DNA of 20,000 nt, taken from the IMG/VR virus record IMGVR_UViG_3300024268_000045; one strand, 5' to 3'. The translations under genes were made by a program, and so were the position numbers. This stretch comes from an uncultured virus (IMG/VR IMGVR_UViG_3300024268_000045). Lineage: Duplodnaviria; Heunggongvirae; Uroviricota; Caudoviricetes. Shown here one piece after another: positions 1 through 19,879 of the stretch. Below the pieces are notes generated by a model, which saw only the letters and a list, made by a program, of their open reading frames with translations, did no database searches and was not told where the DNA came from. Within the stretch, counting starts at the first letter, position 1; each line of letters begins with the position of its first letter.

Positions 1-2298
1 GACCGTCAAGGTGTTGATTGGAAATCACAAACATTATTAGCAGAAACAACAGAAGAAAGAACAGTTATTCTTATATGTGTTAAAGATAACGAAAGAGAGA
101 CAGGAATGGTTGGCTTTTTCGGTGGCGAAATTGTTGAACTTGGAGAAGATGTTGAAAGTCACTATCAAGTTTCTTTAACTTCAACAGGTTCTCGTCTTAT
201 AAAAGGCGCAACAACAAATAAAAAGAAAGCCAAACCTTGCTTTGTAAAATATAATGGAGATTACTATTACGGACTCCATTTTAAGGAATCTAGCCCTGCA
301 AAAATTTATCACGCAGGTTGGTCAAATATCCCAGGCCCTCTTGCAGCGCCTTCATACACGACTTACACAGATGGAGATTTCTCAGAAATCGTCGACCTCG
401 ACGATGATTCTGAGACAGGGACGGAAGTAATTGAATTAAGTTGGGCAGACATTGAAAGCTACAACTGGGAATTCATAGGTGAACTTACAAGCAGACAAAC
501 TGTAAACTTTAGAAACAACTATAATGCAGTTGGCTCAGGCAATAACCGATACTATTCTCTTGCTTCAAACATTCGCTTATATCCTGTAAACAGAAGCGGC
601 TCAAATGCATCAACAGTTGAACTTCACCCAGGGCGGGGCTCAATTACAGTTGAAGGACGCGATGTAACAAATGTTCGATTTGCTATCACTGATGATGTTG
701 GCTATGTTACATTAAGACTTAAGAACTGGGGAGGTATGAACAACATTCCTCGTCAGGGTGCAAATATGGTTATCTTTCATGATAATGGCACAGGAAATGC
801 TCCTAACACTGCTCAGCAATTAGAAAGCCATTACTTCCCTTATGCAGCTACAGGCACTGATGGGTATATCTCTGACTTTACTTTCGGACCACTTCCAAGA
901 GGAACCTATTGGATAAGACAGGGCTCAGGTAATTATAACACAAAGGTTGAATACTACATTCTTCAAACAGAAGCATACTCAGGTGAAGATGACATAGTAA
1001 CGGCAGGCGACCATTATGATTATGATTTCAAGCACGGTTTGAAAATCAAAACACATAATGACATTCACTGGGAAACAAGTCGTAATGGCAACAGTGGCGT
1101 TATTATTTGTGATGCACCTACAAACGAAGTTGACTCAGAAGGCCTTTTACAGGTTGAGGTTTTAGGTCCTTGTAGATTTACAGTTGGATTTTCTAAACTA
1201 CCTGATGATGAAGCGCCTACTACAACATTACTTATATCTGAAACTCTTGAAGCTGGGGATGAAGCTTGGCAAAGAGCAGTTCAAGGATATTCACGAAATG
1301 ATGCAGCAATCACTGATGTTACTTATGAGTATTCTGGAAAGTGGGGTAAAAAGCAAACTCTTTATGTTGCAACTGACCGTCCTGCTGCCATATATTATGC
1401 TGCAATTGAATACCCATCATTCTCAGGTGGTGCAATTATTGCAGATATTATTCGTGGCCTTGATGAAACAGGAGAGGACGGCTCACCTCATATTATCAGA
1501 CCTTCAGGCGTTATTGATAAAGCATCTTTAATGACAATTGCAGGCGTATGTCTTAATTCTGAAAAACAGTTGGTAATTGACTTAAGTAACTGTACTGCTG
1601 CCACAGACGCGCAGGATTGGTCAGGTGATGATGATTTGTCAAAACTATTCCAAGGTGCTTCTTCAGTAAATAAGTTTATTTATCCTAAAGGAACTTTGAC
1701 TGCAGGTAATGCGCCGTTCTTGAACTGTTCATTCTTAAGAGATATTGAATTTAATGATGAAATGTATCAGCTCGGTTACTCTACGTGGGTTAACAGAAAC
1801 CAAGGATTCTTCTCAGGTGCTCGTATTAAAGAAGTATGGCTTCCAAAGCAATTAGGTCAGAGAACAGGTGTTCACGCTTGGGGCGGATACTTTATGGCGC
1901 AGAACAACGTTATTGGGTTATACATCAGACCTGATTCTTATTATGCTCAGAATAATATAAGCATAGCTAACATATTTACAAATCAAGATTGGTATAACAC
2001 AGCGCATCAATTCTGGTCAACTTGGAACTACTCTCGTGGCGACTTCAAAATATATCTTCCTTGTAAACGTATTGGGTCACCTGAAGATAATAATTGGGAA
2101 ACAGGAAATCAATGGCTTTATAATCGTTGGATGAACCAAGTAGGAAATACAACTTTTGCATCAGTAATGAACGAGTATTTGTCAAGCGTTACAAAAAATG
2201 TTCCTTCTTTGGAAAGAACAGACCTTGTAAGAGACCACTTGGTTCCTTATGATGTAAATGAAATGTGGTATGAGCCAAGATGTTTGGATCTTGTGTAA
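1..2298 (+). CDS. Large putative virion/adhesin protein with C-terminal BspA/TpLRR-like leucine-rich repeats (5' truncated by window edge)
   Basis: Frame is open from base 1 (DRQGVDWK...) into the ATG at 106, so the gene starts upstream. The N-part is beta-rich and G/S/T/N/Y-rich. The C-part has LRR_5-like strings (LVIDLSNCT, LFQGASSVNKFIYPKG, PFLNCSFLRDIEF, FFSGARIKEVWLPK). Ends TAA just before the capsid gene. Confidence 0.55.
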   Translation, partial: DRQGVDWKSQTLLAETTEERTVILICVKDNERETGMVGFFGGEIVELGEDVESHYQVSLTSTGSRLIKGATTNKKKAKPCFVKYNGDYYYGLHFKESSPAKIYHAGWSNIPGPLAAPSYTTYTDGDFSEIVDLDDDSETGTEVIELSWADIESYNWEFIGELTSRQTVNFRNNYNAVGSGNNRYYSLASNIRLYPVNRSGSNASTVELHPGRGSITVEGRDVTNVRFAITDDVGYVTLRLKNWGGMNNIPRQGANMVIFHDNGTGNAPNTAQQLESHYFPYAATGTDGYISDFTFGPLPRGTYWIRQGSGNYNTKVEYYILQTEAYSGEDDIVTAGDHYDYDFKHGLKIKTHNDIHWETSRNGNSGVIICDAPTNEVDSEGLLQVEVLGPCRFTVGFSKLPDDEAPTTTLLISETLEAGDEAWQRAVQGYSRNDAAITDVTYEYSGKWGKKQTLYVATDRPAAIYYAAIEYPSFSGGAIIADIIRGLDETGEDGSPHIIRPSGVIDKASLMTIAGVCLNSEKQLVIDLSNCTAATDAQDWSGDDDLSKLFQGASSVNKFIYPKGTLTAGNAPFLNCSFLRDIEFNDEMYQLGYSTWVNRNQGFFSGARIKEVWLPKQLGQRTGVHAWGGYFMAQNNVIGLYIRPDSYYAQNNISIANIFTNQDWYNTAHQFWSTWNYSRGDFKIYLPCKRIGSPEDNNWETGNQWLYNRWMNQVGNTTFASVMNEYLSSVTKNVPSLERTDLVRDHLVPYDVNEMWYEPRCLDLV

Positions 2299-2329
2299 AA
2301 ATGGCACAGCTTTCAAAAAATGATATACT

Positions 2330-2338
2330 AACTAATTA
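2330..2338 (+). promoter_or_regulatory. Putative late-promoter motif AACTAATTA upstream of major capsid gene
   Basis: Variant of the AACTAAATA motif found upstream of the portal gene and the 7603-8427 gene; resembles T4 late promoter TATAAATA. Confidence 0.45.
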
Positions 2339-2486
2339 CTAAAACAATTTGTGTAGTGCTTAATATATGCAGATAAGCGGGAATTATATACCGCAAAAAG
2401 TAGGGTTTTATATATCTAAATATATCGTTCAAGTACACCACATTCTTGTTTTAATTTTCAACAATAAAATAAGGAAAGGTGAAAAA

Positions 2487-4118
2487 ATGAGTGCAACATC
2501 AGTAATTGCAGGTCAGAAAGACGCTGCAGCATTGCGTGAGGCAACAAGAAAAACTCTCGCAAAAACAGAAAGAGAATTCCGTGGAGCTAAGTTCGTAGAA
2601 TCTTGGTCTCGTATCCCTAAAATCGGTGCAGGTTTGAATAAGCTTCCTGAAGCAGTAGCTCGTAACACAGCTATCAACCTTCAGACACAGGCTGCTTCAA
2701 TGGCAAAAATGACAGAAGCACAGCTTTCAACTTCATTCCAAGGTTTCACACCTGAGAATATGTTGAGACTTGTTCGTTTAGCAATGCCTAACACTTGCCG
2801 TAACAAGGTATTCACAGAGTTCGCTATGGAGTCAGCAAAGGACTCTATCAAATACATCAAACCTGTTTATTCAAAGACAGTTGATGGTAGTGATCTTCAC
2901 GACAAGCACACTGCTAACAAAGAAGGTGCTTATCAGGATGCATCAAAGTATAAAGATGTTTACAATGACATCAACGAAGACGATTTCCAGAGAGCTCTCT
3001 ATGAGAACACTGAAGACCGCTTCACTCAGGAGCTTGTAAACATTCAGGGTACAGATGGAGTGTTCACAATCCCTGCAACTCCTGCTGCTGATGCAAATCC
3101 TTTTGTTAAAGCATCAAAGCTCATCCCAGGTTATATGAAAGTATACGTTGGTGATGAAACACATCCAGTTGCTGAAGAGAACAAAAGAACAGGAAACTTC
3201 TTCGTAAACACAGACGACTATCCTAACGCAAAAGTAACAAAGACTGTAGACGACGAAACTGGTGATATCACAATCAAAGTTGAAGGCGTTGAAGGCGACG
3301 TTAAAGTATTTGCACGTTTCGATATGGAAGACGACTTCCTCGGAACAAACCTTGGTGAGATTGAACTCGTAATGAGCGACTACAAGTTTGAACCACGTCC
3401 AACAACAATTGGTGTTACTTGGTCACAGCTTGCTGAAATCACTCTTGACGCTTCATTCGGTCTTTCAGCTCAGGATATGTTGGTACAGTATGCAGGTGAT
3501 GCAATCCGTATCAATCTCGACCTCCGTTCATTCAAGCTTGCTTACGGTGTAGCTCGTTCAAACAAGGACTATATCGTTGAGTTCGATGCTGCTTATGGTA
3601 ACGGTGAAAACATCGAAGGTTACTTCCACACAGCTCAGACATTCCCATCTGCAGTTGATACAGTAACTGACGTTATGGTAAACGACATCAACCGTGGTGG
3701 CGTTTCAAGAATGGTTGCAGGTTTCTCTGCAGGTTCTTACCTCAAACTCGTTAAGGGTACATTCTCTGACAAAGGCCGTCAGGCTGCAAAGGGTATTTAC
3801 CAGATTGGTGAGTTCGGTGGAATCCCAACATTCAAGGCTCCTTCAAGCATTATCCCAACAAATGAGATTATGTGTGTATGGAAGGACGACGAAAACGAAG
3901 GCGACGTTGCAATCGCATTCGGTACATTGGTTCCATTCTTCAACACTGGTATCATCCAGAGAAAGAACTTCTATAAAGAAGCTGGTCTTGCAACATATGG
4001 TGACTGGGCAGTACTTAACAGACGTTATCTCGCTCTTATCCGTATCAAGGGATTGAAGGATACAACAGACGGCCGCGTAGGTGGTATGTTGAAATATTCA
4101 CAGGGTCCAAAGGACTAA
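2487..4118 (+). CDS. Major capsid protein, T4 gp23-like (543 aa)
   Basis: SD-like AAGGAAAGGTG precedes ATG 2487, so the track start at 2367 is likely too early. MLRLVRLAMPN...FAM...IKYIKPVY and EIELVMSDYKFEPRPTTIGVTWSQLAEITLDASFGLSAQDML...IRINLD match gp23 core motifs. Codon bias is that of a highly expressed gene (CGT, ATC, TTC, AAC). Followed by hairpins. Confidence 0.9.
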   Translation: MSATSVIAGQKDAAALREATRKTLAKTEREFRGAKFVESWSRIPKIGAGLNKLPEAVARNTAINLQTQAASMAKMTEAQLSTSFQGFTPENMLRLVRLAMPNTCRNKVFTEFAMESAKDSIKYIKPVYSKTVDGSDLHDKHTANKEGAYQDASKYKDVYNDINEDDFQRALYENTEDRFTQELVNIQGTDGVFTIPATPAADANPFVKASKLIPGYMKVYVGDETHPVAEENKRTGNFFVNTDDYPNAKVTKTVDDETGDITIKVEGVEGDVKVFARFDMEDDFLGTNLGEIELVMSDYKFEPRPTTIGVTWSQLAEITLDASFGLSAQDMLVQYAGDAIRINLDLRSFKLAYGVARSNKDYIVEFDAAYGNGENIEGYFHTAQTFPSAVDTVTDVMVNDINRGGVSRMVAGFSAGSYLKLVKGTFSDKGRQAAKGIYQIGEFGGIPTFKAPSSIIPTNEIMCVWKDDENEGDVAIAFGTLVPFFNTGIIQRKNFYKEAGLATYGDWAVLNRRYLALIRIKGLKDTTDGRVGGMLKYSQGPKD

Positions 4119-16570: not shown

Positions 16571-17383
16571 TTATTTTGCATCTCCTGAAGAATCCATTTT
16601 TTCTTTTTCTCTTTCAATCAGTGCAGCTTTAAGTTTGATTGCTTCTTTTTCTCTTTCTTCAACCTTTGTCTTATCACCTGACTTCAAATTGAAAGTTTCA
16701 TCTGTTGACTTAATAATCTCAAGTTCCTGTTCAGTATAAGCAAGATCATAAATAACCTTTACATTACTTATGTAAACAACTGAAACATCATAACCTGTGA
16801 TAGGGATTGTTCTTATGCGAATTGCTCTAATATAAAGTTCATTTGTTGCCTTTCCACCATAAGCTGGGTAATTCAAAACATCTCTTTTATTAGGGTCATC
16901 AACATATTCAAGGTTATCCCATTCAAGAACAACTTCACCAATAGTCTGCAAGTCGCCTTTGAATTTATATTCTTTACCTACTGGGTCATTTGGGTCAGTT
17001 GCTAAAAATATTGATACTTCATCATTTCTGTTTATGCCATTAACTGTAATACCAAGTTTCTTTAATGTGCCAACATTTGTCAAGTAGCCAAACTCTTTAT
17101 CAGCTTCAGTTATAATAGGATTGTATGGCGGCACAATGTCATAATACACATAACGATTTTCAGGAATGTTCTGAACACAAACAGCAAGTTTGCCATCAAC
17201 AATCTTAATCTGATAAGGAACTCCCTTAAGAGATGACATTGGACGAACTTCCCAATTTTCATAGGAATAACCATCAACTGCGTTTTCGATAAAAGTACTT
17301 GCATTAAGGAAAGTCTTTTCCTCAGCAAATGTTGTAAAACAAATTGCGAATAGCATTGCAAATATCGCAAACAACTTCTTCAT
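16571..17383 (-). CDS. flaA: Spirochete flagellar filament sheath (outer layer) protein FlaA-like, with Sec signal peptide (270 aa)
   Basis: Signal peptide MKKLFAIFAMLFAICFTTFA. IVPPY, GYLTNVGTLKKLGITVNG, LEWDNLEYVDDPNKRD..YPAY and YISNVKVIYDLA correspond to conserved Treponema FlaA blocks (NVGTIK, W.NP.Y...R.R...YP.Y, YFKDVKIIYDKA). Directly downstream of flaB; SD GAGGAG. Confidence 0.8.
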   Translation of the reverse strand: MKKLFAIFAMLFAICFTTFAEEKTFLNASTFIENAVDGYSYENWEVRPMSSLKGVPYQIKIVDGKLAVCVQNIPENRYVYYDIVPPYNPIITEADKEFGYLTNVGTLKKLGITVNGINRNDEVSIFLATDPNDPVGKEYKFKGDLQTIGEVVLEWDNLEYVDDPNKRDVLNYPAYGGKATNELYIRAIRIRTIPITGYDVSVVYISNVKVIYDLAYTEQELEIIKSTDETFNLKSGDKTKVEEREKEAIKLKAALIEREKEKMDSSGDAK

Positions 17384-17407
17384 TTATAATCTCCTCAAAT
17401 TAAAGTA

Positions 17408-17485
17408 AGGGGAACCGAAGTTCCCCTAGTTAAGCTCTTTTTTAAATACTAGGCAACTACCCACCCAATTGAGCCTCAGTTGCCT
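17408..17485 (-). terminator. Structured flaB-flaA spacer: two hairpins (partial terminator or mRNA stabiliser)
   Basis: AGGCAACT...AGTTGCCT (17451-17485) right after the flaB stop, and AGGGGAAC-TTCG-GTTCCCCT (17408-17427) with only a weak U-tail. Confidence 0.6.
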
Positions 17486-18343
17486 TTACTGTAAAAGCTG
17501 CAATACATTCTGTGACTGACTGTTTGCTTGCGCAAGCATTGCTGTTGAAGCCTGCTGAAGAATTGAATTCTTTGTGTAATCAACCATTTCTTTTGCCATA
17601 TCAGCGTCGCGAATAATGCTTTCTGATGAAGTCATATTCTCTGCTGCAACGTTGATACCTTTTGCTGCCATCTCCATTCTGTTCTGAACAGCACCAAGGT
17701 CGGCTCTCTGTCTGTTTACATTCTTCAACGCTTCGTCGATTGTTGCAAGTGTACGGTTTGCTGTTTCAGTATCTGAAACTGATACAAGAGCTCCGTCTTC
17801 ACCATCCTGCCCTTTTCCGCGAAGTCCCAAAGATTCAGCAGTTGCAGATGCAATGTTAATCTTGATGTTCTGGTCAACATTTGCGCCAACTTGGAAAGTG
17901 ATTGAGTTGTCAGTTTCTTTTGCGAAACGACCTGTCAACATATTGTAGCCATTGAACTGAGCAGTAGATGCGATACGGTCAACTTCAGCAACAAGCTGTG
18001 AAACTTCTACCTGAATTTGCATTCTGTCTTCATCGCTGTAAACACCATTTGATGCCTGAACAGCAAGTTCACGGATACGCTGCAAGATGTCTGTTGTTTC
18101 CTGAAGATAGCCAGAAGTAACTTGTATGAAACTTATAGCATTTTCAGTATTTTTGCTTGCTTGATTAAGACCTCTGATTTGAGCTCTCAATTTTTCACTT
18201 ATTGCAAGACCAGCTGCATCGTCACTTGCTTTATTTATGCGTTGACCTGAAGATAATTTTTCAATAGAACTTTGAACTTCCTTTGCATTTATTCTCTCCA
18301 TACGAGAGGCGAACATTGAACTAAGATTGTGATTGATAACCAT
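17486..18343 (-). CDS. flaB: Flagellin, spirochete FlaB core type (285 aa)
   Basis: [103 protein letters not shown]. Short variable region typical of spirochete FlaB; SD AAGGAG. Confidence 0.97.
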
Positions 18344-18364: not shown

Positions 18365-19225
18365 TCACTTCCGTGTTTTGTATGGCTTACAAAGTTTACC
18401 TGCAACAAAGCCAGATGGACATTCATAACAGAAAATGTTCTCTTTTCCATTATTGAACCAATGTTTTCCTTTTCCAAACTTTAAGCGAGCTTCATTTGCT
18501 TTCTTCTTAGTCTCTTCGTTGATAGGCTTTTGAAGTTTGCCTTTTTTGAAGCCTTCAGGACACTCAAAATCAAGAATATTTTCTTCACCATTATTGAACC
18601 AATGTTTTCCTCTATGAATATCTGCAAGCCTCTTAATTTGATTTTTGCATTTATCACTGTTCTTCATAGAAGTTTTTATATGCTCAATATGTTCGTCTGT
18701 TTTTTTATGTCCTTTCAAAGATTTAGAAATATTATCATTCCAAGATTCTGTTCTTTCCACTGAGCTTAATTTCTTTGACATATTTTCTTTATATTCTTTA
18801 AGTGTTTGTTCATCCATTTCTCGTATAGCAGAACGACCATACATAGGATTCCCAGAACCAGAATATATTTTTGAAAAATGTTTCTTAACCTCGTCTGAAC
18901 ATATATGACCTTTATTGAGTTCTGATGATGCTTGTCCTACCAAAACTCTCAATCGTTCATATTCCCTACTTGAAACTTTATGCTTACCTGAATGTGATAG
19001 CCTCCATAAAGCAAATATCATTCCTTTTGTAGGATAAATCTTTACCAAAAGCTGGTGGCAAAAATAATGTTCTCTTGCAGTTAAGAGCACTTGATTAGAA
19101 AGTCTATCTTTCCAAAGAGGGAATATTGACTTTGGAAGTATATGATGCTTCTCATAATAAGCACCATTCTTCTTTTCTCTTAATCCCAACTTTTGCTCAT
19201 TCAAAGCTTTTGTAATAATTATCAT
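18365..19225 (-). CDS. Free-standing HNH homing endonuclease with NUMOD3-type and repeated C-terminal DNA-binding modules
   Basis: YYEKHHILPKS...NQVLLTAREHYFCHQLL HNH core; KGHICSDEVKK, GSGNPMYG and KGHKKTDEH NUMOD3-like motifs; two GKHWFNNG..N....ECP.GF..GKL repeats. Confidence 0.9.
   Translation of the reverse strand: MIIITKALNEQKLGLREKKNGAYYEKHHILPKSIFPLWKDRLSNQVLLTAREHYFCHQLLVKIYPTKGMIFALWRLSHSGKHKVSSREYERLRVLVGQASSELNKGHICSDEVKKHFSKIYSGSGNPMYGRSAIREMDEQTLKEYKENMSKKLSSVERTESWNDNISKSLKGHKKTDEHIEHIKTSMKNSDKCKNQIKRLADIHRGKHWFNNGEENILDFECPEGFKKGKLQKPINEETKKKANEARLKFGKGKHWFNNGKENIFCYECPSGFVAGKLCKPYKTRK
18447..18611. repeat. 24-nt direct repeat inside the endonuclease gene (domain duplication)
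   Basis: CCATTATTGAACCAATGTTTTCCT at 18447-18470 and 18588-18611. Confidence 0.9.
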
Positions 19226-19527
19226 ATGAACGGATATTCGGCTAAAGACCGAATATCTTCCTAATCTTACGAGCCGAGTACTCGACTTGATGGATTAGAA
19301 ACTTCGTGCTTCACAGCACTGCTTGGTGCTCCACACGCATTTGTACTTTCGGCTCGTTCCCTGCCTACTATGTCAGAGTCAAATCTGACTTCATTTTATG
19401 ATTTGCACCAGATAATACTGATCCCTGTGACTAACGTGGATTTCAATCATTTCTAATATAGTTAGTTGATTTTGAGCCTATTCAAATGTTTGGCTAAAGA
19501 CCAAACATTTTTCTAGGCTCGATTTCT
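19226..19527 (-). mobile_element. Non-autonomous IS200/IS605-family element (302 bp) with omegaRNA-like right end
   Basis: Two subterminal hairpins share the loop CTAAAGA (19233-19257 and 19484-19510). The minus strand ends ...GTTCAT and is preceded by TTTAC. No target duplication. Removing it rejoins ...FIHIY to MIIITKAL in frame. The 3' part reads like a tnpB tail (NACG...VKHE). Confidence 0.75.
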
Positions 19528-19552
19528 GTAAATATGAATGAAACTGTAAGCA

Positions 19553-19590
19553 CCTCCTAAGGCAAAAAAAGGTAGCATCCTTGCTACCTT
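19553..19590 (-). promoter_or_regulatory. Flagellin-type leader: AGGA-loop hairpin (CsrA-site-like) plus AGGAGG
   Basis: AAGGTAGCA-AGGA-TGCTACCTT, then a T-tract, then TTAGGAGGT. Could also act as an intrinsic terminator. Confidence 0.55.
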
Positions 19591-19594
19591 ATTA

Positions 19595-19621
19595 TTATCG
19601 ACATTTCATATAAAAATATTA
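19595..19621 (-). promoter_or_regulatory. sigma28 (FliA)-like promoter
   Basis: TAAT-N15-GTCGATAA versus consensus TAAA-N15-GCCGATAA; points toward HNH-flaB-flaA. Confidence 0.6.
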
Positions 19622-19636
19622 ACAATTATTTTTAAT

Positions 19637-19879
19637 TTATGCTTCAAAAACTTCCATAAGTTTTGCGGCAAGTTTACGAACGATGTCAGAAGGAACGTCT
19701 GAGTTATCAAAAACATCAACCATCAGCTGAACGAGAGAGTCATCGTCTGCGCCCATTCTTCTGTTTCTTTCGTAAAGTTCATTTACACCAGTTATCATCT
19801 TTTCGAAAGCTTCGTAATCCCCACCGCTCTCTTGCATTTTATTTGTTGTGCAAATTGCTTCAAATAATTTTTTATCCAT
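19637..19879 (-). CDS. Hypothetical acidic protein (80 aa)
   Basis: SD AGGAG; motifs LFEA, MQES. Confidence 0.7.
   Translation of the reverse strand: MDKKLFEAICTTNKMQESGGDYEAFEKMITGVNELYERNRRMGADDDSLVQLMVDVFDNSDVPSDIVRKLAAKLMEVFEA

Follow-up and report, generated by a model that had tools for sequence, protein, structure and literature searches.

A 302-bp insertion at the 5' end of a phage endonuclease gene

The window, by which we mean the whole stretch of 20,000 nucleotides that was analysed, is part of a 53,426-bp IMG/VR virus record (18% complete according to CheckV) and carries a 302-bp element at positions 19226-19527, whose top strand is the minus strand of the window and which has no ORF of at least 30 aa on its own strand. 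Read on the minus strand, the element opens directly after TTTAC and closes with CCGTTCAT, abutting the ATG of an ORF of 286 aa. The following features make up the locus:

18365-19225, minus strand: Mob-type HNH homing-endonuclease ORF of 286 aa (phrog_655, 8.7e-35), starting at the ATG that abuts the right end of the element
19226-19527, minus strand: protein-less IS200/IS605 derivative, very probably a PATE-type mini-element (hereafter mini), delimited by junction comparison and by the empty site of a full-length relative
19233-19257, minus strand: right-end subterminal hairpin of 9 bp, with loop TCTTTAG on the element strand
19474-19520, minus strand: left-end subterminal hairpin, a long imperfect palindrome with loop TCTTTAG on the element strand, which is also present in full-length elements
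19528-19532, minus strand: target and presumed TAM pentamer TTTAC, which adjoins the left end on its 5' side and doubles as Ile-Tyr codons of the upstream reading
19528-19578, minus strand: 17 codons lying upstream in the HNH reading frame, the final seven of which (YSFIHIY) align with the MNYxKxY start of homologues
19569-19590, minus strand: intrinsic terminator of an upstream 80-aa gene, with ATG 19578 in its loop

A repeat search placed the arms of the right-end hairpin at 19233-19241 and 19249-19257 (9 bp, perfect) and those of the left-end hairpin at 19474-19493 and 19501-19520 (20 nt, 85%). Both hairpins enclose the same 7-nt loop (CTAAAGA on the plus strand) and are directly oriented, forming a 30-nt repeat of 80% identity in which the stem differences are compensatory, just as an earlier note on this DNA had described for its two palindromes. 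Directly oriented subterminal imperfect hairpins at both ends, in the absence of terminal inverted repeats, are a trait of IS200/IS605 elements, and the same plan recurs in all copies of the family described below.

By tblastn, the HNH ORF has matches in 696 phage records, mostly T4-like and none above 60% identity, along with a weak NUMOD3 match. It resembles T4-type Mob and other free-standing HNH homing endonucleases in having an HNH core and repeated C-terminal DNA-binding motifs, but differs from them in that the N-terminal MNYxKxY motif is cut off by the insertion. Five homologues (L082, L084, L086, Aeromonas phage phiA8-29 and Klebsiella phage Mexia) begin with M[N/D]YxKxYxx[I/L]I, whereas the window ORF begins seven residues further on; the conserved Tyr of these homologues falls on the TAC of TTTAC that immediately precedes the insertion. 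On this alignment, the Mob-type HNH gene has its conserved N-terminal motif interrupted by the insertion, which agrees with the location in an endonuclease 5' end given by the earlier note. The same note had proposed that clean excision would restore a typical HNH N-terminus beginning at ATG 19578; the 17 codons are indeed in frame and the motif is split, but this ATG, the only one in frame, lies in the terminator loop and no start codon is present at the homologous N-terminal position. For the remaining HNH ORF, which starts at the right-end boundary, no Shine-Dalgarno sequence is visible.

Beyond the endonuclease gene, 19 neighbouring ORFs were tested, and only FlaB (PF00669/PF00700) and FlaA (PF04620) proved to be flagellar, the others being a helicase, a ligase-like BRCT protein, one phage family of unknown function and orphans. 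The locus had been taken for a flagellar operon; its surroundings are instead those of a large phage genome. The spirochaete-type flagellin FlaB (285 aa) and the flagellar sheath protein FlaA (270 aa) lie side by side at 16571-18343 on the minus strand of this virus-classified record of mostly orphan genes; flagellar filament genes in a phage may serve as auxiliary genes or hint at the host.

Full-length relatives and other copies of the element

A 20-mer covering both hairpins occurred at 11 loci in 7 viral contigs and matched 57 metagenome stretches, about 48 of which belong to the family, a recovery that is far beyond chance. Matches without family context were set aside as chance matches, both among the genome loci (five of seven: L018-L021 and L023) and in the metagenomes (L028, L040, L050, L057, L061, L074, L075 and L078). 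The spacing between the hairpins is bimodal, at either ~250-265 nt or ~1765-1780 nt, and the full-length elements, of 1813-1827 bp, encode a 142-aa Y1 TnpA and a 405-aa TnpB between the same hairpins. In L004 and L006, the two copies whose ORFs were read (the remaining full-length copies being assigned from length), the 142-aa ORF is a Y1 transposase (PF01797, 2.7e-30) and the 405-aa ORF has the PF12323, PF01385 and PF07282 domains of TnpB; a 1.35-kb form (L032) has a single ORF of 394 aa. The parent TnpB aligns with the ISDra2 TnpB chains 8bf8/8h1j over residues 3-363 (E 7e-44), including the D, E and D motif segments, which carry the RuvC acidic residues.

The mini is 99.3% identical to L004 between its positions 156-301 and the last 146 nt of that element, and 94% identical to the left end of L004 at its positions 8-56. 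The reading as a miniature IS200/IS605 element is borne out by these relatives, since the same hairpins flank 1.8-kb elements with Y1 TnpA and TnpB, and such a tnpA/tnpB-bearing parent with the same ends was found in sister phage contigs.

Further copies of the mini came from other viral contigs and metagenomes, but not from its own record, where BLAST detected no second copy and the covariance model described below found the mini only (179 bits), plus a 23-bit match on the mini's own left-end hairpin. The same 302-bp copy, 100% identical, is present at the same site in two other viral contigs, that is, in three contigs in total. The same mini type occupies a second site in L009/L003 (98.3% over 176 nt, including the mini-specific middle, with a TTCAC end), and further mini lineages are represented by L010, L037, L022/L030, L071 and L103. 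The mini shows the PATE/MITE-like traits of having no coding capacity and more than one insertion site, and its family is IS605-type and resident in large phage genomes from animal-gut and digester-type metagenomes.

The mini's own record lacks a cognate tnpB, containing only the 36-codon remnant described below and a distant solo TnpB of 34% identity to the family TnpB. This solo TnpB-like ORF (L096; G000:C1:281-1627, plus strand, outside the window) encodes 448 aa, and the scaffold model found nothing next to it; L096 therefore belongs to another TnpB element of this phage record, unrelated to the family.

Several variant copies were seen along with the family. Solo elements of ~50 nt (L046/L047, L054 and L067), bounded by TTTAT and TTCAC and devoid of scaffold, consist of the left-end hairpin's left arm and the right-end hairpin's right arm, fused through the loop that both hairpins have in common, and may have arisen by recombination between the two hairpins. 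L034, L055 and L073 keep the right-end hairpin stem with a reverse-complemented 7-nt loop (CTAAAGA instead of TCTTTAG on the element strand), and the scaffold upstream of this variant is divergent (43 bits). The L010 mini lies within a phage tRNA array (IMGVR contig of 35,939 bp, 286-3981, 10 tRNA matches), and the L105 mini, in a Treponema MAG, comes directly after a tRNA gene. Among metagenome contigs, L027 agrees with L032/L033 in its left flank and in the left arm of its left end but continues into a different interior, which suggests element exchange at one site or a chimeric assembly.

The 3' module as a putative guide-RNA scaffold

The right half of the mini, together with its flank, contains three features related to TnpB and its guide RNA:

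19226-19370, minus strand: putative omegaRNA scaffold and right-end module of 145 nt, TAGTAGG...CCGTTCAT, 99.3% identical to L004, scoring 179.4 bits with covariance model R1 and having covarying helices
19267-19377, minus strand: tnpB remnant, the last 36 codons plus stop, overlapping the scaffold and 89% identical to residues 370-405 of the L006 TnpB
19206-19225, minus strand: predicted guide segment, the 16-20 nt that directly follow the right end and form the first HNH ORF codons, placed according to ISDra2 and IS605 geometry

The module corresponds to the final 145 nt of the full-length elements, which comprise the 3' end of tnpB and the right end, and has the location of an omegaRNA, at the tnpB 3' end (codons 370-405) and running through the right end to the boundary. 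The scaffold overlaps coding sequence in the parents, and a conservation profile of three close full-length elements showed it to be no better conserved than the remainder of tnpB and was therefore uninformative. In a second mini lineage (L010/L037) the middle differs, yet similarity to the parent starts at the same TAGTAGG. Retention of the complete scaffold from an identical first base in at least two mini lineages is an argument for selection on it.

The 165-nt right half folds at -47 kcal/mol (z = -3.49), a stability that none of 200 shuffles attained. Of the pairings listed in the earlier note, the 9-nt complement between ACGAGCCGA (19269-77) and TCGGCTCGT (19349-57) is exact in the window, and CTAATC/GATTAG and AGCAC/GTGCT are likewise present. 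In a MAFFT alignment of 15 right-end modules (A1), five helices were paired in 91.9% of cells, versus 37-43% when the partners were slid, with 23 double-sided cells and a score that none of 500 shuffles reached. Covariance model R1 also finds distant modules (L022/L030, L042, L045, L053, L070 and L071) at 75-106 bits. A wider alignment of 24 matches (A3), which is fitted to the covariance model and whose pair counts lean towards the structure for that reason, was 93.1% paired over its 23 distinct sequences and had 21 pairs with double-sided change, again with 0 of 500 shuffles reaching the score. The double-sided changes in A3 fall in columns 34-38/65-69, 41-45/55-59 and 73-81/112-120 and in the right-end hairpin, where 8 of the 9 pairs covary across the 23 distinct relatives; covariation in this hairpin could serve TnpA on DNA as well as the RNA.

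The 9-bp long-range helix, present in the window as claimed, does not extend to the whole family: it is clade-specific, with 72.5% of cells paired and pairing kept only in close relatives, and it clashes with a short 5' stem (columns 6-8/18-20) that is 98.6% paired and in which all three pairs covary. In every one of the 23 distinct sequences, GAAC in the loop of this stem is complementary to a GTTC that immediately precedes the boundary; the bases are invariant and never covary, so that a GAAC/GTTC pseudoknot, though 100% paired, is only a proposal. The short 5' stem with loop-to-3'-tail pairing appears to fit the aligned modules better than the long-range 9-bp helix. An RNAalifold consensus helix, GGGAAC/GTTTCT, was rejected in favour of the double-sided helices, as it has only one-sided G-U/G-C changes.

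Rfam gave no match at gathering thresholds over the whole window, and at E up to 10 only sub-threshold chance matches on 19100-19700; on L010, L030 and L071 it returned tRNAs only. The identity to L004, the recovery of family modules by the covariance model and the covarying helices speak for the earlier proposal that the mini has kept a TnpB guide-RNA scaffold. Window 19226-19370 would then be the omegaRNA scaffold of the family's TnpB, for which expression, TnpB binding and TAM-dependent guided cleavage are predicted.

Left end, middle modules and mosaic build

On the minus strand, the parts of the mini follow each other in the order left-end hairpin, left-end motif, middle module M1, small hairpin and 145-nt parent 3' module. 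The parts between the left-end hairpin and the 3' module are:

19455-19467, minus strand: left-end motif ACTAACTATAT, repeated upstream of tnpA in full-length elements (alignment)
19394-19458, minus strand: middle module M1, 65 nt, absent from full-length elements
19372-19389, minus strand: 6-bp hairpin directly 5' of the scaffold, reading terminator-like on the plus strand

The motif ACTAACTATAT may be a promoter element; a sigma-70 scan gave no match at the motif and no promoter-like site in the element on the relevant strand. M1 is 94-95% identical to the middles of two minis in an uncultured Treponema MAG (L103 and L105, on contigs 13 and 19). In the comparison with L103, 52 of 53 positions of M1 are identical; for the left end and the scaffold the figures are 44 of 77 and 84 of 145, respectively. 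Near-identity of M1 between elements whose ends and scaffolds are only ~58% alike suggests an unrecognised functional part upstream of the scaffold. A second middle module, M2, is common to L010/L037, L071 and L022/L030/L104, whose scaffolds and right ends fall into three types, and other mini lineages place a different small hairpin at the same point, directly 5' of the scaffold. Both M1 and M2 are missing from the tnpA/tnpB parents, and each is combined with different scaffold/right-end subfamilies; that they are a promoter or a 5' leader for the guide RNA is a guess.

The covariance model has five matches in the Treponema MAG, which also contains one tnpB (59% identity) and a FlaB that shares 66% identity with its phage counterpart. 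A model search of 121 genomes of its genus matched this MAG and none of the other 120, and M1 searched in 201 genomes of the genus gave real matches in this MAG only, three others being chance matches of 21 nt. In viral contigs, M1 matched the same phage only. One right-end module (L017) resides in a contig labelled as a Clostridia MAG. With a single MAG matched in the genus and L017 in a Clostridia-labelled contig, the assignment to a spirochaete host rests mainly on flaA/flaB.

Junctions and mobility of the family

All fetched loci together provided 23 distinct left contexts and 24 distinct right flanks. The family target TTTAT is found at the boundary or 1-2 bases off in 20 of the 23 left contexts, the exceptions being the window copy (TTTAC), L066 (GTTAT) and L076 (TTTGT), and the right end is TTCAC in 23 of the 24 right flanks, TTCAT being unique to the window type. 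These junctions agree with the positions at which the earlier note had set the boundaries, but TTTAC and TTCAT are not the motifs of the family. The window copy departs from the family norm at the base preceding each cleavage site, TTTAC on the left and TTCAT on the right, and because of these departures TnpA cleavage and TnpB TAM recognition may both fail in this copy.

Over 2478 nt, as far as ...GGAGTTTAT, the end of the mini's own record (L013) matches L006 at 100% identity, and it then resumes with the sequence that follows ...CCGTTCAC (the TTCAC end) in L006. This empty site reads ...GGAGTTTAT/TATGTC... (the slash marking the junction) where L006 has a 1827-bp tnpA-tnpB element, and there is no duplication. 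A near-identical sister contig of 188,745 bp has a full-length element at the site that is empty in the mini's own record and carries the identical 302-bp mini at the same HNH site, ~15 kb away. The presence and absence of a full-length element between near-identical phage genomes indicates that the family is active in this phage lineage. Insertion in the IS200/IS605 manner (3' of a short motif, without duplication and with a scarless empty site) is hence seen for a full-length relative, with TTTAT as the motif. The mini lineage, too, was mobile recently, given the second locus at which this type of mini has the usual TTCAC end.

At the mini's own site, two flank-joining patterns for an empty allele had 0 matches in viral contigs, and the only HNH relatives of 100% identity (L080 and L081) both contain the mini. 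Contigs of four faecal-metagenome runs (X10-X13) showed the HNH site filled (X10 records 2 and 4, X11 record 10) and none joined across the mini; since assembly drops rare variants, this null result is no proof that empty alleles are absent. The same runs contained full-length forms, in which 1624 letters replace the 99-nt middle of the mini (X11, X12) or the sequence continues into tnpB (X10, X13). The earlier note had named a lack of other copies, of empty-site alleles and of a tnpB associated with these ends as grounds for rejecting its reading. Other copies and a tnpA/tnpB parent clearly exist, and empty alleles of the mini's site were not found in the viral contigs or in the contigs of the four runs.

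These junctions bear on whether the window copy is a fixed fossil, i.e. a genuine IS605-derived mini that is now inert, locked in place by its changed bases and retaining its scaffold only because the insertion is young, an alternative to which we assign somewhat less than an even chance. A locked copy would give rise to no empty allele, and hence to no cutting directed by the guide RNA. A fossil would account for the two boundary sequences, each unique or nearly so in the family, for the 100% identity of the copy in three contigs and for the filled site in every junction-spanning contig of X10-X13, with no empty site in the viral contigs; moreover, only 2 differences from L004 over 146 nt leave little time for decay. 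It sits less well with the second site of the same mini type and its normal TTCAC end, which point to recent mobility of the lineage, with the full-length tnpA/tnpB copies in the same samples and in the sister genome, and with the retention of the whole scaffold, from the same first base, in at least two mini lineages.

Discussion

We are highly confident that the 302-bp element is a PATE with an omegaRNA scaffold. The locus as a whole is probably best explained as a non-autonomous, protein-less IS605-type mini that would be moved by TnpA acting in trans and would home by means of a guide RNA used by TnpB. The sequences show the anatomy of the mini and the DNA-level mobility of its family; the steps of excision, transcription and cutting are inferred by analogy with IS608, ISDra2 and the Geobacillus elements. 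A full-length copy would supply in trans the TnpA that cuts the mini out and inserts it, as ssDNA, 3' of TTTAT-like sites. Transcription of the mini would yield an omegaRNA whose guide comprises the 16-20 nt past the right end, that is, the start of the HNH ORF. TnpB from a full-length copy, such as the one 15 kb away in the sister genome, could then use this RNA to cut mini-free alleles beside the target pentamer, and recombination with a mini-bearing genome would restore or spread the mini. That the window copy itself is still mobile and homing is rather doubtful, given the off-norm base before each cleavage site and a site that is filled in every genome seen.

A more far-reaching reading, which we regard as quite unlikely, is that the minis are self-contained guide-RNA cassettes instead of deletion debris and that the window copy is a fixed guide-RNA gene, aiming a phage-borne TnpB at co-infecting phages with an uninterrupted HNH allele. 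A conserved chassis (left end plus M1 or M2) may in that case be recombined with the scaffold and right end that match the resident TnpB/TnpA, and the window copy would owe its fixation to the loss of the consensus base at both TnpA cleavage sites. If true, this would amount to RNA-guided marker exclusion aimed at a protein-guided homing gene.

A role as co-opted regulator is very unlikely. The insertion would here uncouple the HNH gene from its native start and signals, resulting in a shortened or silenced enzyme, or would provide read-out transcription from the mini. The parting of the conserved N-terminal Tyr from the rest of the HNH ORF, the start of the remaining ORF exactly at the right-end boundary without a visible Shine-Dalgarno sequence and the fixation of the insertion in all genomes seen are compatible with such a role; however, the element has no promoter-like site on the relevant strand, expression of the HNH gene or a need for it is at most predicted, and insertion at a T-rich pentamer is ordinary behaviour for the family. 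That the endonuclease gene contains an IStron or a self-splicing intron, or that the palindromes are REP-like repeats or due to chance, can be regarded as refuted as far as sequence evidence reaches and has a negligible probability. Introns are classically found at such a position, near the start of a phage homing-endonuclease gene, but no group I/II intron or other Rfam family was found at E up to 10, the length of the element is a mere 302 bp, its two ends and its 3' module share homology with tnpA/tnpB transposons, and the relative's empty site reveals insertion at the DNA level.

Among known systems, the mini can be set beside IS608, ISDra2 and the PATEs of Geobacillus. The IS608 target, TTAC, differs from the family's TTTAT, and the right-end motif is different as well. 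In the peel-and-paste model for the Y1 TnpA of IS608 (Helicobacter pylori), directly oriented subterminal hairpins, insertion 3' of a short motif without duplication and a scarless empty site are all as in our family.

ISDra2 of Deinococcus radiodurans (PDB 8bf8, 8ex9, 8exa and 8h1j) has a TnpB of similar size (408 aa, versus 405 aa in the parent) and TTGAT as target/TAM instead of TTTAT, and no Rfam or sequence similarity between the RNAs was detected. According to Nakagawa et al. 2023, the ISDra2 omegaRNA has a pseudoknot that stacks on stem 1, and its scaffold overlaps disordered, poorly conserved C-terminal tnpB codons. Similarly, the family scaffold overlaps the C-terminal codons of tnpB and ends at the right-end boundary, and its 5' stem has a loop complementary to the 3' tail next to the guide, a likeness to stem 1 and pseudoknot that is only proposed; unlike ISDra2, whose ordered scaffold is given there as 116 nt, the family has a scaffold module of 145 nt.

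Meers et al. 2023 report that PATEs often encode omegaRNAs that need TnpB in trans from other IS elements, and the IStron preprint likewise shows a PATE. The ISGst PATEs of Geobacillus stearothermophilus, as described by Meers et al. 2023, are like the window mini in having no protein gene, ends common to tnpA/tnpB relatives, a retained omegaRNA part and a need for TnpA and TnpB in trans. The differences are that the window mini lies in a large phage genome and not in a bacterial chromosome, that the family target is TTTAT and not the Gst motifs, that the mini has an extra 65-nt M1 in common with minis of a different scaffold subfamily, and that the window copy has atypical bases before both cleavage sites. 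In the open-access literature searched, including a 2026 review and the IStron preprint, neither such a mini in a phage homing-endonuclease gene nor conserved middle modules of minis were found to be described.

The kind of element is already known, and the window mini is a well-documented new example of it, with no new mechanism. It offers a natural example of the modular TnpA/TnpB/omegaRNA system within a phage population, as a gene-less satellite that keeps exactly the guide-RNA module. With the mini in the first codons of a classical homing-endonuclease gene, RNA-guided and protein-guided homing collide at this site, and since phage co-infection with high recombination is where TnpB homing should work best, the locus is a testable case.
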